Origin: Bacillota bacterium
GTDB taxonomy: Bacteria > Bacillota > Clostridia > Acetivibrionales > DTU013
Assembly (NCBI GenBank): GCA_023399355.1
Contig: JAEWQC010000006.1
Span: 8,422-72,421, forward strand
Direction of reading: 5' to 3'
Length of the DNA: 64,000 bases
Shown here: positions 47,306 through 64,000 of the stretch, piece by piece
Layout of the letters: each line of letters starts with the position of its first letter
How positions within the stretch are numbered: the stretch's first letter is position 1
Made by a program: the position numbers and the translations under genes
The notes under the pieces: model-generated
What the model saw: only the letters and a program-made list of their open reading frames with translations
Told to the model about the DNA's origin: nothing
Databases searched by the model: none

Positions 47306-47344
47306 TGCGTCAGCCTGCAACCTGACGGGAAATTGGGAAAGCCG

Positions 47345-47382: not shown

Positions 47383-47430
47383 TAACATAAATAAACCCCC
47401 GGCTCTGCCGGGGGAGACAAAGAGCTTTAG

Positions 47431-47766
47431 CTTCAAATAGATAAAAAAAACCTCCAATGTAAGAATTACCACATAGTATTTGCAGCGAAGTATCGCAGGC
47501 AAGTGATATTTGGGAAGATAAAGCAAGACATAGGAAAAATGCTAAGGGAGCTGTGCGAAAGAAAAGGAATAGAGATAATAGAAGCGGAGTGTTACAAAGA
47601 CCATGTACATATGCTCGTATGGATACCACCCAAATACAGCGTATCAGAGATTGTGGGTTATCTAAAAGGAAAAAGCTCACTGATGATATTTGATCGGTTC
47701 GCCAATTTAAAGTACAAATATGGCAACCGACATTTCTGGTGTAAGGGAAAAATATTAAGTATGTAA
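47431..47766 (+). mobile_element. tnpA: decayed IS200/IS605-family tnpA (Y1/HUH transposase) remnant
   Basis: The frame open from 47431 reads ..NLQCKNYHIVFAAKYRRQVIFGKIKQDIGKMLRELCERKGIEIIEAECYKDHVHMLVWIPPKYSVSEIVGYLKGKSSLMIFDRFANLKYKYGNRHFWCKGKILSM*. The HUH motif (HVHMLV) is present. No start codon exists for the first ~10 residues, and the C-terminal helix that carries the catalytic Tyr is missing. A GC-rich hairpin CCCCCGGC-tct-GCCGGGGG lies at 47396-47414, just upstream. Confidence 0.75.
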
Positions 47767-48355
47767 TACTTCAATGTGCTGCAATGCAGGGCATTTATAT
47801 CATAAATATGGAAGAGACGACAAATATGTTTTTTATCTTGAAACTCATTTGGAAAAGGGAAGTGAAACATATGTAGCGCTGATAAATTATTATAAGGAGC
47901 ATGATAATTTTGACGGGGCATGCCGAGTGGCAGAACAGGCGCTGGAAAAATGCAAAGATGATCTGACGGAGGCTTTTATATATCTCCTTGTTGATGCGGA
48001 AAAGAGAGAAGATAAAGACAAGTGCAAAAAAATTGTATAGCAGTGCGAAGAGAAGGCGATTGGCAGATATTAACCGAATAGATCAAGTGTTAAGTGATTT
48101 TAATTCAGGTAGTTATACTTGAAAAAAGATATTGTATGGGACTTGGCTTCAAATGACGAATTGATTTTATGACAAATTGAGAAGTATATATTTGACAGAA
48201 TTACACTTATAACTCTTTACACAGGTGAATATTTCAGATAGAATAAATGCGAACAAATGTTTGGCACAGAGAAAAAAATGAAACAATCACAAATTGTGAC
48301 CGTTAGGTATTTGGATATAGATCATCAATAAATCAAAGCGGAGGAAATAAACCTT

Positions 48356-48707
48356 ATGGCAAAGAAAAAGAATAACGAAATCACCATCCGTTCCAGTGCA
48401 GCAGAATACTTGACATACGTTGCAGCGACAGGAGATGATCCTCAAAGCTTTGAAATGCACTATAAGGACGAAAACATCTGGCTTACGCAGAAAATGCTAG
48501 CAACACTATACAATGTAGAGGTTCATACTATAAACGAGCATATTTCTAAGATTTATACGGATAGTGAACTTGTACAGGAAGCAACTATTCGGAATAATTG
48601 CTAAAGCTCATGCTGAAAGTGAGTTTGAGAAGTATCGCATTATCCAGGACAGGCTGTTTCAATCTGACTTTGATAAATTAATTGAGGGCATAAGGAATGA
48701 AGAATAA
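48356..48707 (+). pseudogene. RhuM-family gene remnant (N- and C-terminal pieces joined by deletion and frameshift)
   Basis: 48356-48604 encodes ...FEMHYKDENIWLTQKMLATLYNVEVHTINEHISKIYTDSELVQEATIRNNC*, which resembles a RhuM N-terminus. From 48600, in the +1 frame, the sequence continues AKAHAESEFEKYRIIQDRLFQSDFDKLIEGIRNEE*, the typical RhuM C-terminus. The central bulk of the protein is absent. Confidence 0.55.
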
Positions 48708-48724
48708 CATTTAAAGGCGTGGCA

Positions 48725-48817
48725 GCGGCAAAGTAAAGTACCGAGAAAACGGCAAGTAAAGTGAGGAAATCCGGCAATGAAATGTCAGAGATTTCGGCAA
48801 TGGAAGTGAGGATTTAG
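48725..48817. repeat. four degenerate ~23-bp tandem direct repeats (CGGCAA-N-GNAAGTGAGGAAAT-like)
   Basis: GCGGCAAAGTAAAGTACCGAGAAAA / CGGCAAGTAAAGTGAGGAAATC / CGGCAATGAAATGTCAGAGATTT / CGGCAATGGAAGTGAGGATTTAG, read directly from 48725-48817. Confidence 0.5.
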
Positions 48818-49067
48818 CCGAAACAGAACCCAATTGGTGATAGGATTTTTGTATCTTACCTCAAAAGGGGGACAAATGATTGGGGGATTTCGAAATGTAT
48901 TCAAAGATTCAGCAAGAAAAGGAACAGGGCTTTTCCCGAGAAACAGCAGCACGTCATCTGCCCTGTCTCCAATCGTCCCTTGTCTCCCCTGGCTCCAGAA
49001 AATAGGAGAATAATGAAAATTGTCGAAACATGTCGAGTTATAAGATATATGGCATATAAGTAAACCA

Positions 49068-49096
49068 TTGACATTTGACTTGGCGAAGATTATAAT
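49068..49096 (+). promoter_or_regulatory. perfect sigma-A/sigma-70 consensus promoter (TTGACA-17 nt-TATAAT)
   Basis: TTGACA at 49068-73, a 17-nt spacer TTTGACTTGGCGAAGAT, and TATAAT at 49091-96. It points toward loaP, whose ATG is at 49600. Confidence 0.55.
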
Positions 49097-49325
49097 ATAA
49101 ATCATCACATATTTTCCAATAATATGATGGTTTATGCACAAAAATGAAAGAAAAGTCTAGTAATCGTTTAAAAGCCAGATTAAGTGGAAACTCTCATAAA
49201 GAAGCTAAAAGAGCAGGATAGATGATGTTTCGATATATTGGTGGATTGATGAGAACATATAGCAATTATTGTGTATCTCATTTTTTGAAGGAAAGAAATT
49301 ACTCAAAAAAATTGTTATATAGTAA

Positions 49326-49506
49326 AAGTACTTATCGGCGGTTAATCTCTGGCGGGTCACGTTAATCGCTGATAAGTATTATATGATAAAAAATCGATTC
49401 AACCTACTATTTAGAATATGTCAGATGACGAAGATTTGTCGTTGGCTGATTTCAAGTACTTATTGGAAGTTGGGTGGCGGGTCGCTTGATGGAAGATAAG
49501 GATTAT
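49326..49506 (+). promoter_or_regulatory. duplicated ~55-nt hairpin element in the loaP leader
   Basis: Copy 1 (49326-49385) is AAGTACTTATCGGCGGTTAATCTCTGGCGGGTCACGTTAATCGCTGATAAGTATTAT. Its arms AGTACTTATCGGCG and CGCTGATAAGTATT form 14 bp including two G-U pairs. Copy 2 (49454-49506) is AAGTACTTATTGGAAGTTGGGTGGCGGGTCGCTTGATGGAAGATAAGGATTAT. Both copies share the apical TGGCGGGTC(A/G)C. Confidence 0.45.
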
Positions 49507-49599
49507 ACAGAGGTTAACCGCTAGTGTGCCAATTGGAAAAGTATGGCAGATAAAAGGGCGGAGCTGTATCTTGGCAGCATAGGCAGTGGAGGGGAACCA

Positions 49600-50148
49600 A
49601 TGTCTTTCTGGTATATATTTTGGGTCTTGACGGGTCATGAGAGAAAAATTGAAAACAGGATACAGAGTCAGTTGTGTAATGAGGACATCGTACCTTTTAT
49701 TCCCATGAGGGAAGTACTTTTTAAAAGAGCCGGTAAGGTGAAGAAAGAACTTAATATTGCGTTTCCGGGATACTTGTTTATCGAATCAGATTTGGAAAGC
49801 GTAGAGTTTTTACAACGCACACATCATTTTGTGAGAATATCAAAGGACATCATCGGGATCTTAAAATACAGTAATTCAAATGAGATTGCTGTCAGAGAAG
49901 AAGAGCGTGCAGCATTCTTGAGCTTATGTAATGTTAATCATTGTGTTGAGTCCTCAATGGGCTTTATTGAAGGAGATAAGTTTTACATTGAAAGCGGTCC
50001 TTTGGTTGGTATGGAAAACATTATAAAGGAGATTAACAGAAAAAAGATGGAAGCTTCTTTTGATATGGAGTTTCTGGGCGGAACAAGGCGGTTCACCGTA
50101 GGGCTTGAGTTATTGAGAAAAATAGAAATGGACAGTTCGATAATATAG
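49600..50148 (+). CDS. loaP: LoaP-type NusG paralog (processive antiterminator associated with polyketide clusters)
   Basis: ORF 49543-50148; ATG 49600 lies 5 nt after GGAGGGG. The NGN-like N-terminus is FWYIFWVLTGHERKIENRI...AFPGYLFIES. The KOW-like C-terminus is GDKFYIESGPLVGMENIIKEINRKK. The 182-aa protein lies directly upstream of an NRPS/PKS cluster. Confidence 0.7.
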   Translation: MSFWYIFWVLTGHERKIENRIQSQLCNEDIVPFIPMREVLFKRAGKVKKELNIAFPGYLFIESDLESVEFLQRTHHFVRISKDIIGILKYSNSNEIAVREEERAAFLSLCNVNHCVESSMGFIEGDKFYIESGPLVGMENIIKEINRKKMEASFDMEFLGGTRRFTVGLELLRKIEMDSSII

Positions 50149-50441: not shown

Positions 50442-52010
50442 GTGAGTGAGAATATTATGAAAAACACATATGAGATCATTAATAACACGGAATATCCATA
50501 TGATCATTCAAAAACAGTGATTGACTATTTTGATCAGCAAGCTATGGAACATCCGGAAAATAAAGCTTTATATTTTTTGAAGGATTATATGACATATGGT
50601 GCCTTCCGGCAAAAAGTAAATCAACTTGCTAATTATTTGATCAGCTTGAATTTAAAGAATGCAGTTATTGGTGTTTTAATGGACAAATCATTTGATATGA
50701 TGATCGCCATATACGGTATACTGAAATCAGGTAACATATATATGCCGATTTCTCAGGATTATCCGGATCAAAGAATTTTATTTGTCTTAGAGGACAGTAA
50801 TGCTGCCATCGTTATCGTAAACAAAGATTCCTGCATACAATTAAGTAACATAAAATCGAACGTAAATTATTTAGATATTGAATATGAAAAGATCCAGGTT
50901 CAAAGCAATGAATGCAAAGCTCGTTGCCTTCCAAATGATTTGGCATATATTATTTATACATCAGGTACTACCGGCAATCCAAAAGGTGTTATGGTAGCCC
51001 ATCATTCTTTAATGAATCGCTTAAATTGGATGCAGCATACATACCGATTAACTGAAAATGATGTATTATTGCAAAAAACGTCGATATCGTTTGATGTTTC
51101 TTTATGGGAATTATTTTGGTGGCCTATGGCAGGAGCAAGTTTGTGTCTGCTTGCAAAAGGGCTTGAAAAATTTCCAATGGCATTAACTGAAATAATAGAA
51201 AAGTTTTCAATCTCAGTCATTCATTTTTGCCCTTCTTTGCTTAATTCGTTTTTAAATTATGTTATTGAAAACAAGAAAGAAGAATCAGTTAAATCGATAA
51301 GGCAAGTTATTTGCAGTGGCGAAGAATTACTCAAGTCGCATGTGGAGAAATTCAAGACAAGCTTGTATTTCAATAATAATACGCAGCTTGCAAATTTATA
51401 TGGGCCGACTGAGGCGACTATCGATGTCACTTTTTATAACTGCGATTTTACATTTATTCCGAACAAAATACCTATTGGCAAGCCCATCCATAATACTAGG
51501 GTTTATGTCATCGGGGACAATGATAAATTGATGCCCATTGGTGAAGAAGGTGAATTGTGTCTTTCGGGAGTTTGCCTGGCAAAAGGATACATAAATAATA
51601 AGGAATTAACTGAAAAACAATTTGTCTTATCTGGCATTGTAAAAGATACGTATTATAAAACGGGTGATTTGGTTAAGCTATTGCCTGATATGAATTTGGT
51701 ATTTCTTGGAAGAATAGATGAACAAGTAAAAATCAGGGGTTACAGGATTGAACTTGGAGAAATAGAAACTATTTTGGGAAAATACAATGGAATTCATGAA
51801 TGTTGTGTCATTCACAAAAAGGTTGATGATCTTAATTATTTAGTGGCATTTATAGTGGCAGATGAAAAATTGGACGAGAAAAGTTTGAGAGAATATGTAC
51901 ATCAATTTTTACCATACTATTGTGTTCCTAATAAGTATATTTATGTTGATAAACTGCCTGTGAATATGAGTGGAAAAGCTGATAAAAAGGCATTGCTCTC
52001 TATGATATAA
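50442..52010 (+). CDS. stand-alone adenylation enzyme (NRPS A domain; hand-derived specificity code resembles Ser)
   Basis: Core motifs: YTSGTTGNPKGV (A3), FDVSLWE (A4), NLYGPTEAT (A5), YKTGDL (A7), GRIDEQVKIRGYRIELGEIE (A8), NMSGKADKK (A10). The start may be ATG 50457. No C or T domain is present. Confidence 0.85.
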   Translation: MSENIMKNTYEIINNTEYPYDHSKTVIDYFDQQAMEHPENKALYFLKDYMTYGAFRQKVNQLANYLISLNLKNAVIGVLMDKSFDMMIAIYGILKSGNIYMPISQDYPDQRILFVLEDSNAAIVIVNKDSCIQLSNIKSNVNYLDIEYEKIQVQSNECKARCLPNDLAYIIYTSGTTGNPKGVMVAHHSLMNRLNWMQHTYRLTENDVLLQKTSISFDVSLWELFWWPMAGASLCLLAKGLEKFPMALTEIIEKFSISVIHFCPSLLNSFLNYVIENKKEESVKSIRQVICSGEELLKSHVEKFKTSLYFNNNTQLANLYGPTEATIDVTFYNCDFTFIPNKIPIGKPIHNTRVYVIGDNDKLMPIGEEGELCLSGVCLAKGYINNKELTEKQFVLSGIVKDTYYKTGDLVKLLPDMNLVFLGRIDEQVKIRGYRIELGEIETILGKYNGIHECCVIHKKVDDLNYLVAFIVADEKLDEKSLREYVHQFLPYYCVPNKYIYVDKLPVNMSGKADKKALLSMI

Positions 52011-52037
52011 ACAGACTAATAAGTGCGGGGATGTTTC

Positions 52038-52985
52038 ATGAATATTTCTCTTGTTTACCCGGGAGTCGGGTCGCAATATACCGGCATGGGTAAAGCGCAT
52101 TATGATCGGTTTAATATAGTCCGGGATACTTTTGATGAAGTGAGTGAGATTGCTAAAACCAATATAGCTACTATTTGTTTTGATAATGCTCGGAAAGAAG
52201 ACTTAAATATTCTTGCAAATGCCCAAATATGCATATTCACATTAAGTATTGCTTATCATAGATTATTGAATTTATATTTATCGATATCTCCCCGTTTTTG
52301 TTGCGGTTATAGTCTTGGAGAATATTCTGCTTTGTGCAGCTCAGGCGCGCTCAGTTTACATGACGCAGTAAAGCTAATAGAGTTGCGCTCAAAAATATTA
52401 CAGAAGATAACAGATTTAAAAATTGGAAGTATGCTCTGGATCGTTGAACTAGATGTAAATATGACGGAACAAATTTGTAAAGACTTGCGTGATGACGGAT
52501 ATTACATATATGTTTCAGGATACAATTCGCAAAAACAAACTGCCGTTTCAGGAGATAATACCTCAATAAAAAAAGCGATAGAGTTATTTGAGGAATTTGG
52601 TGCGTTGGTTATTCCTTTGGATTTATCGGGTCCATATCACTGTTCATTAATGCATGAAGCATTTGAATATATGAAAGACGTAACAGAAAAATATACATTT
52701 AAAAAATTATCGGATCCGGTCATAGCCAATTGGAATGCGTGTTTATATAAGGATGGACAATACTCTCAATACCTGATGAATCAATTGGTTCACCCCATAT
52801 ATTGGATGCAGACCATACAGAAGATATACAGCAGCAATCCGGATTTAATAATTGAGGTGGGACCTAAAGAAGTATTAACATATATTTCAAAAAAGAACTA
52901 TGCAGACGTGCATGCTTTATCAATAGATAAAATAGAAAATTTTGAGAGAATATGTGATCTTTGTGAAAATAATTGTATGCATTAA
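52038..52985 (+). CDS. discrete acyltransferase (FabD-like malonyl-CoA:ACP transacylase; trans-AT candidate)
   Basis: ORF 52023-52985; start ATG 52038. LVYPGVGSQYTGMG, active-site GYSLGEYSAL (GxSxG), and SGPYHCSLM. Confidence 0.8.
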   Translation: MNISLVYPGVGSQYTGMGKAHYDRFNIVRDTFDEVSEIAKTNIATICFDNARKEDLNILANAQICIFTLSIAYHRLLNLYLSISPRFCCGYSLGEYSALCSSGALSLHDAVKLIELRSKILQKITDLKIGSMLWIVELDVNMTEQICKDLRDDGYYIYVSGYNSQKQTAVSGDNTSIKKAIELFEEFGALVIPLDLSGPYHCSLMHEAFEYMKDVTEKYTFKKLSDPVIANWNACLYKDGQYSQYLMNQLVHPIYWMQTIQKIYSSNPDLIIEVGPKEVLTYISKKNYADVHALSIDKIENFERICDLCENNCMH

Positions 52986-53703
52986 GGGAATTGCTGTTTC
53001 TAAAATTAGTAAAAATGATAGTGATGATGAGTACAAAGTAGGCACAAAAGATATGTATGCTTTGAAAACAGCATTGGCATTAAAAGAAAGATATCCTTTA
53101 GTTATAGAAGTTATTTGTATGGCTCCTCACTCTTTATGTGATATTTTAAAAAGTCTATATATTTATGATATAAATAAGATTTATTTAGCAGCGGATAGCT
53201 TGTTTGCCGGCGCTGATACGTTTGCCACATCATTTGTCCTGCATAAGATGATAGAGAAAATAGGAATGGCAGATATCATATTATGCGGCAAGTCCAGTGA
53301 TGACAGCGGAACGGCGCAAATTGGTCCAAGTTTAGCTGAACGATTGAAATATGAGCTTATCAACAATATATCATCAATTGAAATCGATGGACATCATATT
53401 AAATGCGAAAGTAGTTCGGAAAAAATAAAATATATGATTGAAACAGAGCAATCAATAGTTGGCACAATTGATTGCCCACCTATTGATAGCACATACCCAT
53501 CGTTGAGAAATATTCTCGGACAAAAGAAAGATGTTACTATATTTAGTGCAAATGATTTAGGAATATCAATAAATCAGATACAATCAAAGACAAAAGTAGT
53601 AAAGTTATTTTCTTATGAAAAATCTGAAATCGGTGAGTTCATTACAGGAGATATTTCTGATATGGCAATAAAGTTTATTGATATTATTAAGTTATACAAT
53701 TAA
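52963..53703 (+). CDS. etfB: electron transfer flavoprotein beta subunit (EtfB-like)
   Basis: ORF 52942-53703; GTG 52963 gives VKIIVCIKGIA.... DMYALKTALALKE, GADTFATSFVLHKMI and DDSGTAQIGPSLAERL match the EtfB pattern. It overlaps the AT stop by 23 nt. Confidence 0.75.
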   Translation: MKIIVCIKGIAVSKISKNDSDDEYKVGTKDMYALKTALALKERYPLVIEVICMAPHSLCDILKSLYIYDINKIYLAADSLFAGADTFATSFVLHKMIEKIGMADIILCGKSSDDSGTAQIGPSLAERLKYELINNISSIEIDGHHIKCESSSEKIKYMIETEQSIVGTIDCPPIDSTYPSLRNILGQKKDVTIFSANDLGISINQIQSKTKVVKLFSYEKSEIGEFITGDISDMAIKFIDIIKLYN

Positions 53704-53708
53704 CCGTT

Positions 53709-54692
53709 ATGCAGCAAGAAGTAAGCATGTCATTTAAGAATGCAAGGGTTTGGGTATTTGGAGAACATGCCGATGGTGTGTTGTCCGGCATTTCACATCA
53801 GCTTTTAGGCATTGCATGCAAGCTTGCAAAAAAAATAGAATCAAAAATTATTATTGTATTGGTTGAATCAAATGAGACAATACATCGAGAGTGTATAGGT
53901 TATGGAGCAGACTATGTTATCAATGTATCTTCATATACCAATATTGATATTTTAGTTGACCTTGCTGACAAAATGCGGTTGATTGAAGAACCGGATATAG
54001 TTATATGCGGATCTACTGAATGGGGGATAAATCTTGCTCCAAGATTAGCTGTAAAATTAGGTGCAGGTTTGACGGCACATTGTGTCAACCTTGAGATATG
54101 CAGTGAAACTGGTCGTTTATTACAGACGCGGCCTACATCCTTTAATAATTTATTTGCGACAATTATCTCCACAAGTAAAATACAAATGGCGACTATAAAA
54201 CCAAATCTGTTTTCTCCCAGTATTATTGATCAAAATAAAAAAGGACAGGTTATAGAATATCAGTCTTCGGAGTTTAAAAATGGTTACACTCTGCAAAAAA
54301 TTATCCAATGTATTGAAGAGAATGCTGCGGATACTAACAGAATCATAATAGGAGTTGGAAATGGTATAGTAGATTATCAGGCATTTAAACTGGTTGAGTC
54401 TTTCGCCAATCTTATTCATGCGCCTATCTATGGATCACGGGAAGCTGTTGCTAAAGGATTGGTCGGGTTTGATCGACAGATTGGCATTACTGGTAAAACA
54501 ATTAATCCGAAATTATATATTGCAATAGGGATATCCGGCTCGCATAACCATTTGCTCGGGATTTCAAAAACTACGAAAATTGTTGCTATAAACACAGACA
54601 TTGGATCAGAAATGATAAAAGCAGCCAATTATAAAATTATATCGGATGCAAAGGATTTTCTTAAATTGATCCTTCAAAAAATTGTCGTTTAA
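53709..54692 (+). CDS. etfA: electron transfer flavoprotein alpha subunit (EtfA-like)
   Basis: 327 aa; the start may be ATG 53727. VWVFGEH..., and the C-terminal FAD region PKLYIAIGISGSHNHLLGISKTTKIVAINTDIGSEMIKAANYKIISD. Confidence 0.75.
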   Translation: MQQEVSMSFKNARVWVFGEHADGVLSGISHQLLGIACKLAKKIESKIIIVLVESNETIHRECIGYGADYVINVSSYTNIDILVDLADKMRLIEEPDIVICGSTEWGINLAPRLAVKLGAGLTAHCVNLEICSETGRLLQTRPTSFNNLFATIISTSKIQMATIKPNLFSPSIIDQNKKGQVIEYQSSEFKNGYTLQKIIQCIEENAADTNRIIIGVGNGIVDYQAFKLVESFANLIHAPIYGSREAVAKGLVGFDRQIGITGKTINPKLYIAIGISGSHNHLLGISKTTKIVAINTDIGSEMIKAANYKIISDAKDFLKLILQKIVV

Positions 54693-54718: not shown

Positions 54719-55573
54719 GTGATGAATAACATGGAATATAGTATTATCGAGATAGTACTGCGTTTTAATGGGAAATATTCACCAGGATATCAATATACTC
54801 CTGCTGAAAAAAACTCTTTACCGGTAATTTTACTTTGTCATGGAAATTATCAGGAAGGAAAGGATTCGAGAATTATACTGTCTATAGCAGAAAATTTAAC
54901 TAAAAAGGGTTTTATTGTAGTGACATTTGATAACCTTTGTTATAATAAAGCATGGAAACCCGATGATGGTGAAATTCACAGTTCTGAAGAAATTGATATG
55001 CGATGGGCGGCATTTGCTGCTATTACATATATCCGAAATAATTACATTGAAAAGAAAATAATTGTTATCGGACATTCTATGGGGGCTTCAATTGCGCTAT
55101 CAGTCAGTGCTTTGAGTGATTATATCAATGAAACTATTGCAATATCTCCAACAAGAATATCCGCATTTATTTTTGATGATAATGAATTAAATGATTTTTG
55201 GATGCAAAATAAAGACATTATTGAAACAAAAATTGATAAAAACGTTACGCGTTCAATTCGTTTAGATATGATGGCGGAAAATTACATCCCCTTTTTAAAT
55301 AAAAAGAGAACTCTATTTATCTGTGGATATAAAGAACGATATTATAATTATAAAAAATGGATTAAATCCCTGGCAGAGTCAATAGGAGAAAGTTGTGAAT
55401 CAATAATCATTCCCAATGCAGATCATTATTTTGGAATAACTCCCGGCAATGAAAATCAGGAAGTTTTTAACAATTTTATGAATAGTATATTTACATGGAT
55501 AAATAAAAAATACGGAGAGATTAATATAAACCTGGTGAATGAACAAAAGACTGTGAATGAAACTTTGAAATGA
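54719..55573 (+). CDS. alpha/beta-fold hydrolase
   Basis: 284 aa. LLCHGNY..., nucleophile elbow IGHSMGASIAL, and a late NADHYF (His). Confidence 0.7.
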   Translation: MMNNMEYSIIEIVLRFNGKYSPGYQYTPAEKNSLPVILLCHGNYQEGKDSRIILSIAENLTKKGFIVVTFDNLCYNKAWKPDDGEIHSSEEIDMRWAAFAAITYIRNNYIEKKIIVIGHSMGASIALSVSALSDYINETIAISPTRISAFIFDDNELNDFWMQNKDIIETKIDKNVTRSIRLDMMAENYIPFLNKKRTLFICGYKERYYNYKKWIKSLAESIGESCESIIIPNADHYFGITPGNENQEVFNNFMNSIFTWINKKYGEININLVNEQKTVNETLK

Positions 55574-55649: not shown

Positions 55650-56264
55650 ATGAATTGTTTTATATGCATATCCGGACTTGATGGCTCGGGTAAAACGACA
55701 CAATGCAAACTATTGTGTGAGTATCTATTGCAAGAAGATCCGATATATTATATTTTTGGAAACATAGAAGATAACAAGTACGTAAATAGAGCAACGATAA
55801 ACTACTTGAAAAAAACGAATTTGTTTTTAAACAATACGCAGAAACATCTTATCAAGTCGGCATTTCACATGTATTTTGACATTGAGCAGCTTACTCATAA
55901 TAAGTTCTATCATGACAGAATCGTAATTATGGACAGATATGTGGAAACGATATATGCACATGCCCAATTATATGGTTTAGAGCCGGAAATTATTAGTGAT
56001 ATCTTTAAAGATATATATATCAGACCTGATTTTTATTTATTTCTGGATCTTGACCCCGAAATATGTTACAAAAGGGTATTACAGAGAGGGAAAGCGGTCA
56101 GTACACATGAAGAATTATTCAATTTGATTGAACTGCATGAATTATATAAAAGTACAGTTAAGGAATTAGGTATAAAACTAATTGATGCGGACAGAACTCC
56201 TTCTGAAATACATCAAAGCATTGTTTCACATCTAAAGTTAAATAACACTGGAGAACTACGATAA
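55650..56264 (+). CDS. thymidylate-kinase-like P-loop (d)NMP kinase family protein
   Basis: 204 aa. ISGLDGSGKTTQCKLL (P-loop as in dTMP kinase), MDRYVETIYAHAQ (DRY-type motif) and a lid-like QRGKAVSTHE. Confidence 0.6.
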   Translation: MNCFICISGLDGSGKTTQCKLLCEYLLQEDPIYYIFGNIEDNKYVNRATINYLKKTNLFLNNTQKHLIKSAFHMYFDIEQLTHNKFYHDRIVIMDRYVETIYAHAQLYGLEPEIISDIFKDIYIRPDFYLFLDLDPEICYKRVLQRGKAVSTHEELFNLIELHELYKSTVKELGIKLIDADRTPSEIHQSIVSHLKLNNTGELR

Positions 56265-56376
56265 TACGGTGCTGTATCTGGTCAAACCGAATGCTATTTT
56301 CCGCCGTGCAAACTGCCCACTCGTTTTATCATTGTATAGAAATCAATGAAAATATACCATAATTTGGAGGGTAACT

Positions 56377-56613
56377 ATGTTGGAGAAAAGGATTCTGGAA
56401 ACAATAAAAGATAATCTTGAAATTAAAGTCGACCGCGATTTGGTGCCTGAAGACAATATTGAAGACTTGGGCATTGATTCCATAACCTTCATGGATGTTA
56501 TTGTCGGCTTGGAAGATGAATTCAACATTGAAATAGATGACGATAGACTTTTCTTTCCAAAAGGGAAAAAGCTGGAGTATATTATTAAAATGATAATGGA
56601 TACCATGGCTTAG
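56377..56613 (+). CDS. discrete acyl/peptidyl carrier protein 1
   Basis: 78 aa; GGAGGG RBS. LGIDSITFMDVIVGLEDEF (DSI phosphopantetheine site). Confidence 0.8.
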   Translation: MLEKRILETIKDNLEIKVDRDLVPEDNIEDLGIDSITFMDVIVGLEDEFNIEIDDDRLFFPKGKKLEYIIKMIMDTMA

Positions 56614-56805: not shown

Positions 56806-57828
56806 ATGATGAAATATAGATTGGATGAGAGTAAGTTAAGGTATCAGAATTCAGAAACAATTGATAGATTTAAATATATGTTGCAACGGCTGGAACCCGA
56901 AATACTTGAATTCCTGAAGACCATACCATATGCCCTAATTAATGGTGAGGCACTGTCAGTCATGGCATACGGGGATATCGGTTATCGTACATCCATGGAT
57001 TACGATTTTTTAGTTTCGATCAAGCATTCTAAAGAGATTAAAAGTGCTTTCTTTGAGCACGGCTATGTTGAGTTTTTATATGATAAAAACGGAAACGCAA
57101 GAAAGCCAACCCGCAAAGAACAGATCATGCTTATCAATGCAAATCGCTTAACCGCATTTGAAAAGTTAACAGAGGATGGGATAAAACTTTCTTTTGATTT
57201 TAATACCGGCATTTTTTGGAGTGAATATAGAGGAAAACAAATTGATATTGAAGAGTTTGTGTCAGATGCTGAAGAAGTTCAGATCCATGGCGTCAAATTG
57301 AAAATGTTAACTGACATAAAGTGCTTTATTCAAACTTGTTTGCATCACTACATATTGATGAATTCACCTTTTCATTTGTTTGAGCCTAGAAAACTTGTGA
57401 TGACTGAATGTTGGTTTCAAGACATTTATTATCTTTATAAATCTCAGATCCATAAAAAAACGCATATGTTAGAGACTTTTATAAATGAATATGAGCTTCA
57501 AGATGAATTCTTTTATGTGCTGTATTATACCAGTGTTGTTTTCCAGGACAACGAGCTGTATAATTTTGCACAAATATTCAGAACCGAATCGGGTATGGAA
57601 AAGTTGAATCAATTTGGCCTCAGCGACAGTGAAAGAAAAACCTGGCCAATTTCATTTGAAGAAAGAATGAATCATCCCCAACTATTTAAGGTACTCAAAC
57701 CATTAATGAACGATAGAGAACTTGAAAAAATCATAAAGAATTCAACAAGGACAACTTATCGTATGGAGATGTCGACTGATTACACTTATGATCCCTACTT
57801 TTATGAAAAATCGCGGAAAGTGAAATGA
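56806..57828 (+). CDS. nucleotidyltransferase-family protein (NTP_transf_5-like)
   Basis: 340 aa; AGGAGG RBS. LINGEALSVMAYGDIGYRTSMDYDFLVSIKHSKEIKSAFFEHGY fits the G..L......R...D.D.LV pattern of the uncharacterised nucleotidyltransferase family. Confidence 0.5.
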   Translation: MMKYRLDESKLRYQNSETIDRFKYMLQRLEPEILEFLKTIPYALINGEALSVMAYGDIGYRTSMDYDFLVSIKHSKEIKSAFFEHGYVEFLYDKNGNARKPTRKEQIMLINANRLTAFEKLTEDGIKLSFDFNTGIFWSEYRGKQIDIEEFVSDAEEVQIHGVKLKMLTDIKCFIQTCLHHYILMNSPFHLFEPRKLVMTECWFQDIYYLYKSQIHKKTHMLETFINEYELQDEFFYVLYYTSVVFQDNELYNFAQIFRTESGMEKLNQFGLSDSERKTWPISFEERMNHPQLFKVLKPLMNDRELEKIIKNSTRTTYRMEMSTDYTYDPYFYEKSRKVK

Positions 57829-57950: not shown

Positions 57951-58217
57951 ATGATTAATCAAAACAACAGTAAAATAAAAAGTATACTAAAAAACTACAT
58001 AATGGAAGATATTTTGTTAGGAGACCGGAGTTTTGAGATCAACGATGATACTGCATTGATTAATGATAACATCATTGATTCTATCAATCTGATGAAATTG
58101 ATTTCCTTTATAGAGAAGAAGATGAATATTACCTATAGCCACGACGATTATTCTGTTGATAATTTTAACACCATTAATGACATCGTTGAATTAATAAATA
58201 AAAAATGTGAGGAGTAA
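57951..58217 (+). CDS. discrete carrier protein 2
   Basis: 88 aa. NIIDSINLMKLISFIEKKM (DS site). Confidence 0.75.
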   Translation: MINQNNSKIKSILKNYIMEDILLGDRSFEINDDTALINDNIIDSINLMKLISFIEKKMNITYSHDDYSVDNFNTINDIVELINKKCEE

Positions 58218-58222
58218 CGGTC

Positions 58223-58483
58223 ATGGAAAGAAAAGTTATAGGAGATACCATACTTTGTCTTATTAAAGAAGAACTGGAAATCAGCACCAGCCAAAAGGTT
58301 GAATTAACATCGAAATTATTAAGCATAGGAATAGACTCGATAGCAATGATGACATTGTTAGTCTTTATCGAAGAAAAGTTTAATTTTGCGGTAGATGAAG
58401 ATGTGCTGATTTCCAATCGTTTTGTAACAGTAAACGAAATTGTTGATTATGTTGAAGAAAAAACCAATAAGAACATTGCATGA
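58223..58483 (+). CDS. discrete carrier protein 3
   Basis: 86 aa; starts 5 nt after carrier protein 2. LSIGIDSIAMMTLLVFIEEKF. Confidence 0.75.
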   Translation: MERKVIGDTILCLIKEELEISTSQKVELTSKLLSIGIDSIAMMTLLVFIEEKFNFAVDEDVLISNRFVTVNEIVDYVEEKTNKNIA

Positions 58484-58531: not shown

Positions 58532-59647
58532 GTGGACTTTAGTTTTGACAATGAATCTGTTGAATTGGCTGAACATACAAAGCAATTCATTATAAATGAA
58601 ATCAATCCTATACTGATAAATTGCAAAACATCTTTCTCTCCAAAAGCATGGAATGCGTGTTGTGACTTTGGATTGACGGGCATTACTTTTGATGCTTCAT
58701 ATGGAGGATTAGGAGTTGGCCCTGTCACAGCAGTGCTTTTGGTGGAGACATTGGGAAGACATTGTAATGACAATGGGTTCGTATTTGCATTAACAAATCA
58801 TGTTTTTGCTGCGGGAATCAGTATATATCTTTTTGGAAGACCGTCAATAAAGAGAAAATACATGGAAGGATTAATCAGTGGACAAGCAATAGGCGCTTAT
58901 GCAATTACCGAAGAAGTATCAGGATCAGACGCATTCAATATGAAAACAACGTATAGAAAAGTTGGAAGCGAATACATACTAAACGGATTCAAAACTTTTA
59001 TAACAAACGGTCCGATTGCTTCTACATTCATTGTATTCGCAAAATCTGAAGACGAAAATAAAATATCTGCATTTATTCTTGATAAAAATAATGACAAACT
59101 TAACGTCGGCATGCCTTTGAAAAAATTAGGCCTTGCATGTGCACCAATGTCTGAGATAAAAATGAAAGACTATAATATAGGTGAAGACCATATATTAGGG
59201 AAAGAAGGAGACGGAAAGTTAATATTCAACCATGTGATCCAATGGGAAAGATGTTATAACATGGCAGCTTGTTTGGGAATAATGAAAAAGAACCTTGAGG
59301 TATCCATTAGAAGGGTACTTGATAAAAAACTTGGTAAACATCAAAGCATAAGCAACAAGATCGCAGATATGAAAATAGCGATAGAACTCAGTGAATTATC
59401 TTTATATAAAAGTGCATGGTTATTAGAGAATAAAAAGTCATGCTATCTTGAATCTGCTATAGCCAAATATTACACAAGTCAAAACTACATACAAGCATGT
59501 TTGGATTTGCTTAATATTCACGGGGCGTATGGATATATTGAAGAAACAAAAATAGGTTCTGAAATAAATGACGCACTTGCATCCAGCATTTATTCCGGTA
59601 CAAATGATATATTAAAAAACATCATAGCCAGATATTGTAATATATAA
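58532..59647 (+). CDS. acyl-CoA (acyl-carrier-protein) dehydrogenase-family flavoenzyme
   Basis: 371 aa; GTG start after AGGAGA. GAYAITEEVSGSDAF, FITNGPIAS, and a C-terminal YGYIEE...DALASSIYSGTNDILKNIIAR. This is the typical ACAD three-domain layout. Confidence 0.85.
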   Translation: MDFSFDNESVELAEHTKQFIINEINPILINCKTSFSPKAWNACCDFGLTGITFDASYGGLGVGPVTAVLLVETLGRHCNDNGFVFALTNHVFAAGISIYLFGRPSIKRKYMEGLISGQAIGAYAITEEVSGSDAFNMKTTYRKVGSEYILNGFKTFITNGPIASTFIVFAKSEDENKISAFILDKNNDKLNVGMPLKKLGLACAPMSEIKMKDYNIGEDHILGKEGDGKLIFNHVIQWERCYNMAACLGIMKKNLEVSIRRVLDKKLGKHQSISNKIADMKIAIELSELSLYKSAWLLENKKSCYLESAIAKYYTSQNYIQACLDLLNIHGAYGYIEETKIGSEINDALASSIYSGTNDILKNIIARYCNI

Positions 59648-59660
59648 AAGAAGGGTATTT

Positions 59661-62600
59661 ATGATTTGTTACTATGATATGTCAGAACAGCAAAAACAAT
59701 TATATGTAGCACAAAATATAGCAGGAAACAACAATTTATATACGCTCTCTTTTACGATGACCTTTGAAGGTAACCTGGATTGCCCTTGTTTATATAAATC
59801 AATACAAAAAGTATTTGATTATAATGAAATATTAAAAAGCCGGATTGTAGACTGCGGAGATGTCGCCAAACTAACAATTGATTGCGGTGATGTAAAAATT
59901 GAATATGTTGAAAATTCTTCTGCAGATATCAATGATTATATCGCATCGGAAAATATCGACTTAAAATCAGATGCACTATATAAAATCAAACTAATAAAAA
60001 TAATGAATGATCTGCATATACTTTATTTTTCATTCCATCATATTATAATAGACGGAGACTCAATAAAACTTTTCTGCGACTCACTTAGAAAGACTTATAA
60101 TGAAGAATTAAATACAGTAAAGCAAGCAGTTAAAAACCCTCAGTTAAGTCAAAATAAAAGCTTAAGTTATTTCGATTATATATTCTACCAAGATATTTTT
60201 AGAAAAAGCAGCTTTTACCGTCAACAAAAAGAATATTTTCAAGATCAATTCAAAGATCAATATAATTTCCTTGACTTTCCGGGTATACAGGCTGAAATAC
60301 ACAATTTATATGATTCGGACTCTGAAAGTCTTTTATTTGATTTCAATACTTTTGTTGAGATGCAAAAGTATGCATTGGCAAATAAGATTCAGATAAATTC
60401 TCTATTTTTATCTGGATTAGCATTGCTGTTAAGCAGTTATTGCGACACTGACGATATTGCAATTGGTTGTATTTCAAATGGAAGAGAGAACAATATCTTA
60501 TTTAAAAATATTATTGGTTTCTTCTCCAATATAATGGCACTGCGGTTAAAGCTTGAGCCTGAAATGAATTTCAAAGACTTTATATCATATGTGAATGAAA
60601 AGATAAAAGAAGGCTTAATAAATCAGGACTATTCTTATGGTGAAATAGTGCGGGACATGAACGCATACGGAAACAGGAGCAATAAATCACTAATTCAAGT
60701 TATTTTTAACATGCAGAAATCCTATGACATAAAAAATCAATGGGACAGTATTCATAAAGTTAGTTTTAAACTTAATGAAAAAGATAAGATTAACTATGAC
60801 CTGATAATAGATATAAAATATAGTAACGAAGAAGTTATTATTAAAATAGAGTATTCGAACAAAATATTTTCAAGTTCATTAATAAAAAGGCTTGTCAAGA
60901 ATTATCAATATGTCCTGGAAAACATTTTAAAGAATCTTAATTGCCCTCTTGTTGGTGTGCCATGTGTCAATACCAGTGAACAAGAGCTTGTTTTAAAGAG
61001 CTTTAATAATACGTTTGAAGTAATAAAATATAAAAATATTTTTGATATATTCTTTGAATCTATGAATAACAATCTCGATAAGCTGGCCATTATAGATGAG
61101 GATATGCAATTTACCTATGGTGAAATAAAAAAATACATAAACAGCTTTGTTTCTGTTTTATTAAAGAATAAGACAGAAAAAGAAATTATCGCTTTATTAT
61201 TGGACCGCTCTTCTTTATATGTTATCAGCTTATTAAGTGTTTTAAGTGTCAATGCAGCCTTTGTACCCATTGATCCAAGCATACCGGAAGAAAATAAAAT
61301 AAGCATTTTGAAGGACTGCTCTGTTAAAAGGATCATCACTTCAAAATCTTATAAAGATATGGCGGAAAATTTAAAAAATGAAATAAAAGAAACCTTAATT
61401 GTATATGCGGATGATATAGATGTTCATGAAGTCGATTACAAAATGCCCATAATCGCACCTCGCGATTTAGCGTATGTAATATTCACATCCGGTACTACAG
61501 GCACCCCAAAAGGGGCGATGATAAATCATGAGAACCTTGTAAATCTTTTTTTGCTATTTAAGAAGTTTTTTAATATCAGCAATGAAAACAGAATCATACA
61601 ATTTGCCAATATCTCATTTGATGCTTCAATATGGGAAATATTTATGGCGTTATACCATGGGGCTACACTTTATATTCCTCCCAAAACCGTTATTTTAGAC
61701 ACACATGATTTTTGCAAGTATATCGACACATATCAAATCGATACAATGACTCTGCCCCCGGTATATGCAAGACAATTAGAAAATTATAAATTGAAATCAA
61801 TAAAAAAATTAATTGTAGCCGGATCTGTTTCTTTTCATGAAGATTATATTCAATGGAAAGATAAAGTTAATTTTTATAACGCTTATGGATTGACAGAAAC
61901 TACCATATGCGTAACTGTCTATAATGGAAATGATGGAACTTGTAAAAGTTATAAAAACGAGCTCTCGGTTGGCAAACCTGCTCCTAACACTAAATTATTC
62001 ATTTTGGATAAATGGAATAGAATCACGCCAATGGGAGTTACGGGGGAATTATATGTTTCAGGTAAATGTTTAAGCAATGGATATATTAACAATGAGTTTT
62101 TAACTGAAGAAAAGTTTCTTTCGAATAAATATTCTGATAACAGTAAAATGTACAGAACCGGCGATCTGGCTCTGTGGTTAGAAGATGGAAGCATTATCAT
62201 TACAGGCAGAAATGATGAACAAATAAAAATAAAAGGTATACGAATTGAATTGCCGGCTATCGAGAGTGTCTATTTAAGACATGAGAAAATTAATCAGTTT
62301 GCGGTTGTAGCATCAAAAAGAAACAACGATTACATGATAAAAGCATTCTATACTGCAGAGGACAAACTAGATGAAGAAGATTTGAGAAATTATGGGAATC
62401 AAAAATTACCCGGATATATGATCCCTCACCAGTTTATAAGATTAGAAAAGCTACCGATTTCCAATAGCGGAAAGATAGATAAAAAACATCTTCTAAGTGT
62501 AGATACAACTCAAAAACATCTTGATGGAAAAAACGTTGGCAACAAAATATGCGAATCGGTAACAGATAAGATTTATACCATTGTATCAGGCTTGACAGAA

Positions 62601-62783
62601 CACGACATTGATTTTGATGATAATTTTTTTGAAATGGGACTGGATTCATATTTGTTGATGTTTCTTAGAAATGAAATACTGGAAATTTTCAATGTTGATA
62701 TTCGAATCGTAGAATTATTTAAATACACAACAATAAATTCTCTAGGTGAATATTTGGCAAATCTTTTACAGATAACCGTCTGA
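59661..62783 (+). CDS. NRPS module C-A-T (A-domain code identical to GrsA Phe)
   Basis: 1040 aa. C domain HHIIIDGDS. A domain FTSGTTGTPKGA, FDASIWE, NAYGLTETT, YRTGDL, GRNDEQIKIKGIRIELPAIE and SNSGKIDKK. T domain FFEMGLDSYLLM. Confidence 0.9.
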   Translation: MICYYDMSEQQKQLYVAQNIAGNNNLYTLSFTMTFEGNLDCPCLYKSIQKVFDYNEILKSRIVDCGDVAKLTIDCGDVKIEYVENSSADINDYIASENIDLKSDALYKIKLIKIMNDLHILYFSFHHIIIDGDSIKLFCDSLRKTYNEELNTVKQAVKNPQLSQNKSLSYFDYIFYQDIFRKSSFYRQQKEYFQDQFKDQYNFLDFPGIQAEIHNLYDSDSESLLFDFNTFVEMQKYALANKIQINSLFLSGLALLLSSYCDTDDIAIGCISNGRENNILFKNIIGFFSNIMALRLKLEPEMNFKDFISYVNEKIKEGLINQDYSYGEIVRDMNAYGNRSNKSLIQVIFNMQKSYDIKNQWDSIHKVSFKLNEKDKINYDLIIDIKYSNEEVIIKIEYSNKIFSSSLIKRLVKNYQYVLENILKNLNCPLVGVPCVNTSEQELVLKSFNNTFEVIKYKNIFDIFFESMNNNLDKLAIIDEDMQFTYGEIKKYINSFVSVLLKNKTEKEIIALLLDRSSLYVISLLSVLSVNAAFVPIDPSIPEENKISILKDCSVKRIITSKSYKDMAENLKNEIKETLIVYADDIDVHEVDYKMPIIAPRDLAYVIFTSGTTGTPKGAMINHENLVNLFLLFKKFFNISNENRIIQFANISFDASIWEIFMALYHGATLYIPPKTVILDTHDFCKYIDTYQIDTMTLPPVYARQLENYKLKSIKKLIVAGSVSFHEDYIQWKDKVNFYNAYGLTETTICVTVYNGNDGTCKSYKNELSVGKPAPNTKLFILDKWNRITPMGVTGELYVSGKCLSNGYINNEFLTEEKFLSNKYSDNSKMYRTGDLALWLEDGSIIITGRNDEQIKIKGIRIELPAIESVYLRHEKINQFAVVASKRNNDYMIKAFYTAEDKLDEEDLRNYGNQKLPGYMIPHQFIRLEKLPISNSGKIDKKHLLSVDTTQKHLDGKNVGNKICESVTDKIYTIVSGLTEHDIDFDDNFFEMGLDSYLLMFLRNEILEIFNVDIRIVELFKYTTINSLGEYLANLLQITV

Positions 62784-62802: not shown

Positions 62803-64000
62803 ATGTACTCATATAAAGATACAGATATTGCGGTAATAGGATTGGCCGGCAGATTTCCAGGTGCGGCAGATATAGGTGAGTATTGGACTAATTTAAAAAA
62901 TGGCGTTGAATCCATATGCTTTTTTTCAGACGAAGAATTACTTGAAAATGGGATCTCTAAGGATTTATTACATAATGAAAATTATGTGAAAGCAAAAGGT
63001 TATTTGGAAAATACAGATTATTTTGATTCTCAATTCTTTCGTTATTCATTAAAAGAAGCCGGTTTAATGAATCCTCAGACAAGACTCTTTCATGAATATG
63101 TATACGCAGCACTTGAAGATGCGGGATATTCAAAAAATAATCAGGATAACAAAATCGGTTTATTTGCCGGAGCCTCTTGTGATGATACATGGAGAAAACA
63201 TTTAGGCCTTCAGGATAACGGGAATACAGCGTCTCAATTTAATAGTGAACTGCTGGTAAATAAAGATTTCATGTGCTCAAGCGTGGCATATAGGTTAGGA
63301 CTAAAGGGACCATGTTACATAATTAATACAGCCTGCTCAACATCCTTGACTGCTGTTCATATAGCTTGTCAATCAATTTTAAACAATGAGTGTGAAATGG
63401 CGGTCGCGGGAGGCGTATCCATAACTTTTCCACAAAAGAACGGATATATTTTTGAAGAAGGAATGCTAAACTCTCCGGATGGGCATTGTTGCTCATTTGA
63501 TAAAGATTCTAAAGGAACAATAGCAGGAAATGGTGTTGGAGTAATCGTAATCAAAAAATTAAGCAAAGCAATAGAAGATAAGGACACCATATACGCAATC
63601 ATTAAGGCTTCGGCAGTAAATAATGACGGGAACAATAAGCTTAATTTTACAGCGCCTAGCTTTTTGGGTATAGAGTCTGTAGTTAGGGAAGCATATAAAA
63701 AAGCAGAGATAGATCTCAAAAACGTTAAATATATTGAAATGCATGGTACCGGCACTCCTTTGGGCGATGCGGTTGAGATAGCAGCTTTAAAATCTGTTTT
63801 TGACGGAAAAGGCATCAATGAGTGCATCATTGGTTCAGTAAAAGCAAATATAGGTCATTTAGATGCTGCAGCAGGGATTGCCGGCTTTATAAAAACTGTT
63901 TTGGTGCTTTATTATAAGCAAATACCACCGGCAATTAACTTTAACTCACCCAATGATGAACTGATTGCAGAAAATGGGATATTTTCCGTAAATACCAGCT
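62803..64000 (+). CDS. polyketide synthase, N-terminal ketosynthase domain (runs off the right edge)
   Basis: Not in the ORF track because it has no stop in the window. ATG 62803 follows AAGGAG. My translation reads MYSYKDTDIAVIGLAGRFPGA...INTACSTSLTAVHIACQS...EMHGTGTPLGD...KANIGHLDAAAG, so the Cys-His-His triad is intact. Confidence 0.9.
   Translation, partial: MYSYKDTDIAVIGLAGRFPGAADIGEYWTNLKNGVESICFFSDEELLENGISKDLLHNENYVKAKGYLENTDYFDSQFFRYSLKEAGLMNPQTRLFHEYVYAALEDAGYSKNNQDNKIGLFAGASCDDTWRKHLGLQDNGNTASQFNSELLVNKDFMCSSVAYRLGLKGPCYIINTACSTSLTAVHIACQSILNNECEMAVAGGVSITFPQKNGYIFEEGMLNSPDGHCCSFDKDSKGTIAGNGVGVIVIKKLSKAIEDKDTIYAIIKASAVNNDGNNKLNFTAPSFLGIESVVREAYKKAEIDLKNVKYIEMHGTGTPLGDAVEIAALKSVFDGKGINECIIGSVKANIGHLDAAAGIAGFIKTVLVLYYKQIPPAINFNSPNDELIAENGIFSVNTS

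Follow-up and report, generated by a model that had tools for sequence, protein, structure and literature searches.

A divergent electron-transferring flavoprotein pair held in a serine adenylation-acyltransferase cassette of a low-GC biosynthetic island from a Bacillota bacterium

The DNA analysed here, called the window throughout, is a 64,000-nt stretch of a Bacillota bacterium contig (JAEWQC010000006.1) that ends inside a nonribosomal peptide synthetase-polyketide synthase (NRPS-PKS) gene cluster. Two adjacent genes of this cluster encode the subunits of an electron-transferring flavoprotein (ETF), EtfB and EtfA, and follow genes for a stand-alone adenylation (A) enzyme, A1, and a discrete acyltransferase (AT) (Table 1). 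A first-pass annotation of the same sequence had proposed that the pair arrived with the cluster and provides an electron outlet for the acyl-CoA dehydrogenase (ACAD)-fold enzyme encoded further downstream, whose gene does lie at 58532-59647 as that annotation had it. Both ETF reading frames are intact; the ETF domain of Pfam was found in both products and ETF_alpha only in the product of 53709-54692. GC content was 46.7% at positions 1-29000, 52.2% in a giant gene at 29039-47305 and 30-39% from ~48 kb to the window end. At 31.3% (EtfB) and 35.7% (EtfA), against 46.7-52.2% in the flank, the pair has the AT-rich composition of the island, as had been noted. No second ETF was found in the 64-kb window.

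The AT reading frame stops at 52985 and the GTG at 52963 is in frame with EtfB, which gives the AT/EtfB overlap of 23 nt already described in the first-pass annotation. The overlap was retained in orthologues, at 23 nt in loci L001, L004 and L005 and at 35 nt in L007/L022, and AT and EtfB appeared translationally coupled at all loci. EtfB orthologues begin with ATG at the homologous codon ('MKIIVCIKG'), while TTG 52942 and GTG 52954 are possible alternative starts in the window. EtfA starts at ATG 53709 or ATG 53727, the latter being equivalent to the start of its orthologues.

Fifteen related contigs carry the pair (loci L001-L005, L007, L010-L013 and L022-L024). The order A1-AT-EtfB-EtfA was found wherever DNA upstream of EtfB was visible (L001, L004, L005, L007, L022, L023, L024 and the window), and the EtfB-EtfA pair occurred on five further short or cut contigs. 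Outside this set the pair is isolated. A search of 5.8 billion proteins with EtfA returned seven cluster representatives at 72-100% identity and a next match at 37%, and these close relatives came exclusively from related metagenomic contigs. Beyond the clade, the nearest EtfA proteins (36-37% identity) have a ferredoxin domain, which the window EtfA lacks. An exhaustive HMMER search of 1.84 billion representatives with EtfB gave a single 50%-identity cluster with E < 1e-30 and a next match at 36%. Scans of 185,579 GTDB species-representative genomes, with the protein and with the clade alignment, yielded only a 30%-identical housekeeping bcd-etfBA locus and no cultured host of the pair, and a plasmid collection held nothing closer than FixB at 35%; the ACAD matches in that collection were ordinary A-PCP-ACAD triads (PCP, peptidyl carrier protein).

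The ratio of nonsynonymous to synonymous substitution (dN/dS) against orthologues was 0.12-0.24 for EtfB and 0.14-0.25 for EtfA, within the 0.08-0.25 of neighbouring genes (comparisons with L005 and L001 were left out for the AT), which shows that the pair is under purifying selection. Across the related loci, cluster GC was about 31-34% in hosts with flanks at 39-52%, which fits a mobile cluster. Since ETF genes are abundant in Clostridia and easily duplicated, we considered that the pair might be a redundant, drifting copy of a housekeeping ETF, carried with the island and without a role in the pathway, an outcome that the first-pass annotation had named as one that would undo its proposal. 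Reading frames are, however, intact at all loci, dN/dS (0.12-0.25) resembles that of neighbouring biosynthetic genes, identity to any other ETF is at most 37% and synteny is fixed. These conservation data make a redundant copy unlikely, and we regard it as barely credible. Conserved synteny, the isolated clade, purifying selection and island GC agree instead with acquisition of the pair together with the cluster, as had been proposed. The ETF is a cluster-borne, co-inherited and fixed redox component of the four-gene cassette A1-AT-EtfB-EtfA.

The Stachelhaus code of A1 was DVWHISLIDK in every orthologue, identical at 9/10 positions to that of ClbH-A1 from E. coli CFT073 (DVWHFSLIDK), which loads serine in the colibactin aminomalonyl pathway. 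The code register was checked with a GrsA reference segment, and is validated by the published code, DAWTIAAICK, which this segment gave. In L001, L005 and L024 a gene of the 3-hydroxyacyl-CoA-dehydrogenase fold (3HCDH), followed by one for an 84-aa acyl carrier protein (ACP), stands directly upstream of A1-AT-EtfB-EtfA. The 3HCDH product shares 45.6% identity with ClbD, or 54% in the case of the L005 fragment, and the ACP matches ClbE, the aminomalonyl carrier protein, with E = 2e-17. No ClbF-like ACAD was found near any A1-AT-EtfB-EtfA cassette, and the sister cassettes therefore read ClbD-ClbE-[no ClbF]-A(Ser)-AT-EtfB-EtfA. The two dehydrogenases by which aminomalonyl-ACP is formed in colibactin biosynthesis are ClbD and ClbF, which are homologous to ZmaG and ZmaI of the zwittermicin pathway (PMC12390127).

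The aminomalonyl cassettes of those pathways (ClbD-ClbE-ClbF-ClbG-ClbH(A1); ZmaF-J) have in common with the loci described here a serine A domain, a discrete AT and a downstream AT-less PKS module; the sister clusters add a ClbD homologue (46-54% identity) and an ACP resembling ClbE, arranged as in the known cassettes. Where the known cassettes have an ACAD of ClbF/ZmaI type, the present ones have EtfB and EtfA. Two further differences from clb are that the A domain is free-standing here and that the AT is FabD-sized, without the C-terminal extension of ClbG; moreover, the ClbD and ClbE homologues belong to sister clusters and were not seen in the window itself. Because ClbD and ClbE homologues directly precede the cassette in sister clusters, we take the cassette to be an anaerobe's version of the colibactin/zwittermicin pathway. 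These relationships also revise the view that the ACAD is the only obvious partner of the ETF, whose invariant neighbours are the serine A domain and the AT, with the ClbD/ClbE homologues upstream in sister clusters.

We compared the two subunits with solved ETF structures. The best matches of EtfA were CarE (1e-44), A. fermentans EtfA (6e-42), 7koe (2e-40) and C. difficile EtfA (4e-40), with canonical ETFs at ~1e-21. EtfB gave the same pattern, with bifurcating ETFs first (CarD, A. fermentans, C. difficile), and the matches spanned the full length of both subunits. Alignment with bifurcating and non-bifurcating ETFs, which the first-pass annotation had suggested, thus returned bifurcating ETFs as the closest solved relatives, with key flavin-site residues kept. 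Sequence thus places the pair, by lineage, among the two-FAD ('bifurcating') ETFs of anaerobic Firmicutes.

Residues of the electron-transferring (ET) and bifurcating (Bf) flavin sites are numbered after A. fermentans (Afe) EtfAB, in which R253 corresponds to human R249 and EtfA R146 to Rpa R165, and their roles are taken from published work (PMC8958531, PMC12630350, PMC10279923). The ET-flavin site is kept (equivalents of Afe R253, Ser/Thr270, Tyr279, His290 and Gln266), with Gln289, now Asn, as its one change, and R244, T261, Y270 and H281 of the window EtfA are invariant across the clade. The first shell of the Bf site is likewise kept, both in EtfA (Arg146, Ile157), where the arginine is R141 of a clade-invariant 'TRP' motif, and in EtfB (Asp93, Thr94, Thr97), where the D, T and T of the window's 'GADTFATS' (compared with GADTxATS) are clade-invariant. 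EtfB also keeps C116, G117, D122, T125 and Q127, as well as a Y-P-S-L-(R/K)-N loop (L181) that aligns with the partner-recognition loop of other ETFs; the loop has this role in the human complex of ETF with medium-chain acyl-CoA dehydrogenase (MCAD). Judged by these residues, electron-carrier function is very probably intact and the pair likely binds a second FAD.

Clade-specific changes at otherwise conserved positions gather around the second (beta) flavin site. In EtfB they comprise N35G (NPYD to GTKD, with loss of Tyr37), G62A, G77D, G217Q (GSPT to QSKT) and the change of KQVPD to KGIAV, together with an N-terminal protrusion that is ~8 residues shorter; in EtfA they comprise D130H, G150F, G151N and R170K. 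The position of EtfB Gly123 is occupied by Ser, a small residue, in the whole clade, and in 21 of the 130 nearest EtfB relatives. Gly123 has been called invariant in bifurcating ETFs, where it makes room for the isoalloxazine, canonical ETFs being bulky at this position (PMC12630350). The FAD-region motif GISGSHNH, which had been singled out as odd, is present at EtfA residues 274-281 and proved to be mostly ordinary variation: its Ser also occurs in A. fermentans EtfA (GISGSVQH) and the flavin-O2 His is kept. The Gln-to-Asn exchange in it (Q289N) is truly rare, being invariant in the clade at a position that is Gln in 109/112 relatives. As a deeply divergent branch of the bifurcating lineage, with an intact ET site and an altered Bf-site periphery, the pair should be useful for asking which residues bifurcation needs.

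The ACAD of the cluster is of the type that acts on carrier-protein-bound substrates, as had been supposed, and matches the AnaB/PigA/Bmp3 class. Its best solved matches were 4irn (AnaB prolyl-ACP dehydrogenase, 1.5e-82), 6cxt (the Bmp3-carrier complex, 3e-67) and 5zw0 (PigA, 2e-59). The NCBIfam models for PigA (309 bits) and RedW (264 bits) also matched, each short of its equivalog cut-off. It has W-E-R and Y/F-S-G-T motifs in common with the solved relatives and, as in AnaB and 6cxt, Ser at the position of MCAD Glu376; compared with ClbF it was 26.5% identical (88 bits). The W-E-R Glu is the catalytic base of AnaB and Bmp3, and AnaB/PigA-type enzymes are described as O2-using 'oxidases' or as 4-electron oxidants, able to oxidise an aminoacyl thioester twice in succession by two electrons each time (PMC10849742). 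An O2-free acceptor is therefore a sensible need for such an enzyme in an anaerobe. The ACAD clade is tight (78-100% identity, then 40%) and always occurs in the order CP-CP-ACAD-NRPS(Phe), where CP is a carrier protein. The A domain of this NRPS (59661-62783) has exactly the 10-residue code of GrsA-PheA, DAWTIAAICK, and the same code was found in L007, L014 and L017. No Pro-specific A domain was in view, the codes seen being Ser and Phe. The PKS module after the NRPS has the order KS-linker-KR-ACP-C (KS, ketosynthase; KR, ketoreductase; C, condensation domain), with no AT domain and no recognisable dehydratase, and so it needs a trans-acting AT.

AnaB, PigA, RedW, PltE and Bmp3 are thus the known systems closest to the ACAD (~40% identity to AnaB), with the W-E-R Glu, the Ser at MCAD Glu376 and the preceding free-standing carrier proteins in common. 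The known prolyl-carrier systems are A(Pro)-PCP-ACAD triads of aerobes, assayed with O2, whereas the present cluster encodes an ETF and shows no A domain for Pro in the part in view. The literature searched gave no dedicated ETF for AnaB/PigA-type systems, and we know of no such system that has one.

How closely the ETF and the ACAD are linked varies between loci. The ETF was never separated from A1 and AT, nor the ACAD from CP-CP-NRPS; the distance between ETF and ACAD was 3.8 kb in the window type and ~35 kb on a sister contig. In the window the two are co-oriented, without a strong terminator between them, in one apparent transcription unit that is consistent with the partnership first proposed. 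On a sister contig of 41,839 bp that carries both EtfA P0470 and ACAD P0392, one strand holds both the ACAD block and the ClbD-ClbE-A1-AT-EtfB-EtfA block, ~35 kb apart. Both blocks are present on the window-type contigs of at least 25.8 kb and on the sister contigs of 41.8 and 43.3 kb; an ACAD of this clade was not recorded on the 42.8-kb contig of L001 type. Loci with the ETF and no ACAD in view (L001/L002), or with the ACAD and no ETF (L017/L018), might suggest independent modules, but P0470 and P0392 share a contig, and what the data show is variable distance rather than independence.

The explanation to which we give most weight, at a little under an even chance, is that carrier-bound serine is oxidised, probably by way of the AnaB/PigA-like ACAD, and that the ETF serves as the anaerobic outlet for the electrons. 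Serine would be loaded on a carrier protein and its CH2OH group oxidised to a carboxylate, giving aminomalonyl-ACP, from which the AT would pass an aminomalonate-type unit to the AT-less PKS module. The ETF genes would hold the place of the FAD-dependent, ACAD-fold dehydrogenase ClbF/ZmaI, and the exposed alpha-FAD of the ETF would take single electrons from a flavin dehydrogenase acting on the carrier-bound, serine-derived intermediate. The electrons would then go onward to cellular acceptors instead of O2, which may be NAD+/ferredoxin by way of the beta-flavin site, or another carrier. The ACAD is the only ETF-compatible dehydrogenase in the cluster and so the probable proximal donor. The aminomalonyl product, the flow of electrons from ACAD to ETF, its direction and the final acceptor are what we infer from the cassette and its homologies. 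The model is the most economical in that it accounts for both linkages, that of the ETF to A1-AT and that to the ACAD. As for the earlier proposal that the cluster ETF is the electron outlet of the ACAD, co-inheritance and the need for an O2-free acceptor speak for it, while the attachment of the ACAD to another block and the missing Pro A domain speak against it.

Several observations weigh against oxidation of serine along this route. Neither the cluster portion of the window nor the 10 kb that follow the ACAD in orthologues contained a ClbD homologue, and the window-type cluster has no clear ClbE homologue (CP1, at 27% identity and E = 2e-7 to ClbE, and the 78-aa PCP are there), and the aminomalonyl route is therefore incomplete in this cluster type as seen. 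The AT scored 139 bits (29.5% identity) against ClbG, 211 bits against fabD (below the 260.9 cut-off) and 157 bits against its best solved match, a clostridial malonyl-CoA:ACP transacylase (MCAT); being at least as FabD-like as ClbG-like, it may simply load malonate. The ACAD is far nearer to prolyl-carrier-protein dehydrogenases than to ClbF (281 vs 88 bits) and is tied genetically to CP-CP-NRPS rather than to the serine cassette, from which it lies ~35 kb away on one sister contig, and L014/L015 carry CP-CP-NRPS-PKS without any ACAD. Changes at highly conserved residues near the beta site (EtfB N35G, G62A, G217Q and the short protrusion; EtfA G150F, G151N and D130H) make cofactor content and NADH reactivity uncertain. 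Finally, the literature searched gave no paper that joins an ETF with aminomalonyl or prolyl-carrier-protein dehydrogenase pathways.

In the pure form of the earlier proposal, the ETF would only re-oxidise the AnaB/PigA-like ACAD and the substrate would have nothing to do with serine, being for example a prolyl- or acyl-thioester on CP1/CP2 that serves as starter for C-A(Phe)-T (T, thiolation domain); the position of the ETF genes would then be operon history. The best ACAD matches are prolyl-carrier-protein dehydrogenases, the catalytic Glu is kept and two carrier proteins stand immediately upstream; such enzymes are described as oxidases or 4-electron oxidants, the well-studied partners of this Firmicute ETF lineage include the ACAD-fold Bcd and CarC, and ACAD and ETF co-occur on window-type and 41.8-/43.3-kb sister contigs. 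Set against this, the ETF-ACAD distance ranges from 3.8 to ~35 kb, whereas ETF-AT-A1 are inseparable and the AT/EtfB overlap is conserved; the A domains in view are specific for Ser and Phe, with none for Pro; and the ClbD/ClbE homologues beside the ETF cassette point to serine chemistry. At L018/L019, the 21 kb visible include the ACAD block but no ETF cassette, and the 33-kb contig concerned has no recorded EtfA of the clade, although this is not conclusive. On balance we consider a substrate unrelated to serine unlikely, yet a serious competitor.

The flow of electrons could also run the other way. A true bifurcating ETF working reductively would receive NADH, for example from the ClbD-like dehydrogenase, at the beta-FAD and send one electron to ferredoxin and the other via the alpha-FAD to the ACAD, which would reduce an enoyl thioester; AT, ETF and ACAD would then form an anaerobic counterpart of the AT-ER pairs (ER, enoyl reductase) of trans-AT PKSs. 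All three proteins have reductive bifurcating systems (CarCDE, Bcd-EtfAB and AcrABC) as their nearest matches among solved structures and NCBIfam models, R146, D93, T94 and T97 are retained at the Bf site, and the PKS is of trans-AT type. However, the ACAD falls among aminoacyl-carrier-protein dehydrogenases that oxidise their substrates, the constant serine A domain would be left without explanation, and the beta-site surroundings and EtfB protrusion are altered. The PKS module, KS-KR-ACP-C, has no recognisable dehydratase and so no enoyl intermediate is evident. We judge both this reductive scheme and the likeness to AT-ER pairs that would follow from it improbable.

A different way to account for the missing ClbF is that the ETF itself replaces ClbF/ZmaI, with the remodelled beta site or an AT-EtfAB complex taking hydride from a carrier-bound, serine-derived aldehyde or alcohol, so that aminomalonyl formation would need no ACAD. 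The ETF genes occupy the clb/zma ACAD position with no ClbF-like gene near the cassette, the clade-specific changes lie around the beta site, where bifurcating ETFs accept the hydride of NADH, and the apparent translational coupling of AT and EtfB at all loci also speaks for it. We know of no precedent for an ETF that oxidises a non-nicotinamide substrate, and this counts against the idea, as does the conservation of first-shell Bf residues and of the partner-recognition loop, as would be expected of an ordinary carrier; an ACAD is, moreover, present on the long contigs (window-type; 41.8- and 43.3-kb sister contigs). We think direct oxidation by the ETF very improbable; if true, it would be the first ETF to act as a substrate dehydrogenase in natural-product biosynthesis.

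Comparison with ETF systems of primary metabolism shows where the pair departs from its relatives. With Bcd-EtfAB (C. difficile, A. fermentans) and CarCDE (A. woodii) it has in common the EtfB-then-EtfA order, best matches to 6fah, 4kpu and 5ol2, a conserved first shell at both the ET and Bf sites, and an ACAD-fold enzyme in the same apparent transcription unit. In contrast to those systems, the ACAD here is not adjacent and depends on carrier proteins rather than CoA, the neighbours are NRPS/PKS genes and not crt/hbd/thl, the EtfB protrusion is shorter, NPYD has become GTKD, the GG after the Bf-site Arg of EtfA has become FN, and the likely direction is oxidative. Pathway-dedicated ETFs are known, among them FixAB with CaiA (carnitine), LctBC with lactate dehydrogenase, and the mycofactocin-associated EtfAB. 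The principle in common is that the genes of a private ETF lie next to those of the one pathway for whose flavoenzyme it works. In those cases the pathway belongs to catabolism or cofactor metabolism and its substrates are free or CoA-bound; here the setting is an NRPS-PKS cluster and the substrates are carrier-protein-bound. While ETFs, aminomalonyl cassettes and aminoacyl-carrier dehydrogenases have all been described singly, their combination is new, especially the presence of EtfB and EtfA where a serine cassette would have ClbF, in clusters of anaerobes.

The conversions of serine to aminomalonate and of proline to pyrroline/pyrrole on carriers have so far been reconstituted with O2 or an unspecified acceptor. 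To the question of how strict anaerobes dispose of the electrons of such oxidations, a private ETF joined to serine-A and AT genes offers a concrete, testable answer. The gene order Ser-A / AT / EtfB / EtfA may also serve as a genomic marker for aminomalonate-type extender-unit pathways in metagenomes of anaerobes and of the gut.

Table 1. Features of the low-GC island in the window, with the evidence for each assignment
Feature	Position	Strand	Evidence and remarks
Promoter-like site, sigma-70 consensus TTGACA-17-TATAAT	49068..49096	+	12/12 matches; upstream of cluster, 450 bp before LoaP gene
LoaP-type NusG paralogue (antiterminator), first gene of the island	49543..50148	+	NF033641 antiterm_LoaP 149 bits (cut-off 125); NusG
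Stand-alone adenylation enzyme A1, serine code, ClbH-A1-like	50442..52010	+	Code DVWHISLIDK; 37% identity, 340 bits to ClbH-A1
FabD-like discrete acyltransferase (AT)	52023..52985	+	Acyl_transf_1; 3' end overlaps etfB
EtfB (small/beta subunit), divergent, two-FAD ETF lineage	52963..53703	+	PF01012 5e-19
EtfA (large/alpha subunit), no ferredoxin domain	53709..54692	+	PF01012 3e-29, PF00766 3e-23
Alpha/beta hydrolase	54719..55573	+	Pfam; directly 3' of EtfA in window-type clusters, two small genes further on in L002
dTMP-kinase-like P-loop protein	55650..56264	+	Domain matches, synteny
78-aa carrier protein (phosphopantetheine-binding)	56377..56613	+	Masked in the list of open reading frames by a longer antisense frame, 56343-56606 (minus)
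NTP_transf_5 family nucleotidyltransferase	56806..57828	+	Pfam, synteny
Carrier protein CP1, weakly ClbE-like	57951..58217	+	27% identity to ClbE, E = 2e-7
Carrier protein CP2	58223..58483	+	PP-binding
ACAD-fold enzyme, aminoacyl-carrier-protein dehydrogenase type (AnaB/PigA/Bmp3-like)	58532..59647	+	Structure and NCBIfam matches
NRPS module C-A-T, A domain with GrsA Phe code DAWTIAAICK	59661..62783	+	Domains, code
Start of trans-AT-type PKS module (ketosynthase), runs off the window	62803..64000	+	Orthologues: KS-linker-KR-ACP-C, 1764 aa

From the promoter-like site onward all genes lie on the + strand with short gaps (Table 1), and no strong + strand terminator-like site was found between 50442 and 64000. 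LoaP is known for antitermination of long polyketide operons, and further LoaP homologues are found at the flanks of sister clusters (L017, L018 and L019). The 78-aa carrier protein has orthologues in L001 (directly after EtfA), L002, L007, L022 and L023 and is a candidate carrier for serine. The dTMP-kinase-like and NTP_transf_5 proteins recur together in clusters of this family, among them L018, which has no ETF cassette in the part seen.

At the upstream edge of the island, composition switches at about 47.3-48 kb, GC falling from ~52% to ~37% across 47300-49500. An 87-aa remnant of an IS200-type (Y1_Tnp) transposase at 47503-47766 sits at this break and fits an insertion boundary. The giant gene at 29039-47305 (+) encodes a 6088-aa surface protein with many RCC1-type repeats, Big_5, PKD and CARDB domains and C-terminal SLH domains, and is closed by a terminator-like hairpin at 47345-47371. 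The higher-GC part also holds a housekeeping-type set at 16279-22365 (an acyl/acetyl-CoA synthetase-like enzyme, a 3-hydroxyacyl-CoA dehydrogenase that is 32-33% identical to ClbD, a cyclase-family protein and a thiolase), which includes no bcd or etf genes.

In the relatives, the DNA upstream of ClbD-ClbE-A1-AT-Etf in L001 (1-6500) and L024 (1-5600) encodes a radical-SAM enzyme, a carrier protein, another AMP-binding enzyme and a family-2 glycosyltransferase, joined in L001 by a DUF362 iron-sulfur protein and a further AMP-binding enzyme and in L024 by a 700-aa protein with a citrate-lyase-ligase domain; these genes are a second, non-canonical carrier-protein pathway. Small flavin proteins are encoded near the ETF in L002 (Flavin_Reduct and PNPOx-like, 4180-5201) and L001 (PNPOx-like, 13013-13483) and could be alternative redox partners. 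In L014 (8903-9919) and L015 the PKS gene stops after KS-KR (1081 aa) and a phage-type integrase gene follows directly on the other strand, so that the cluster of this relative looks truncated by insertion.

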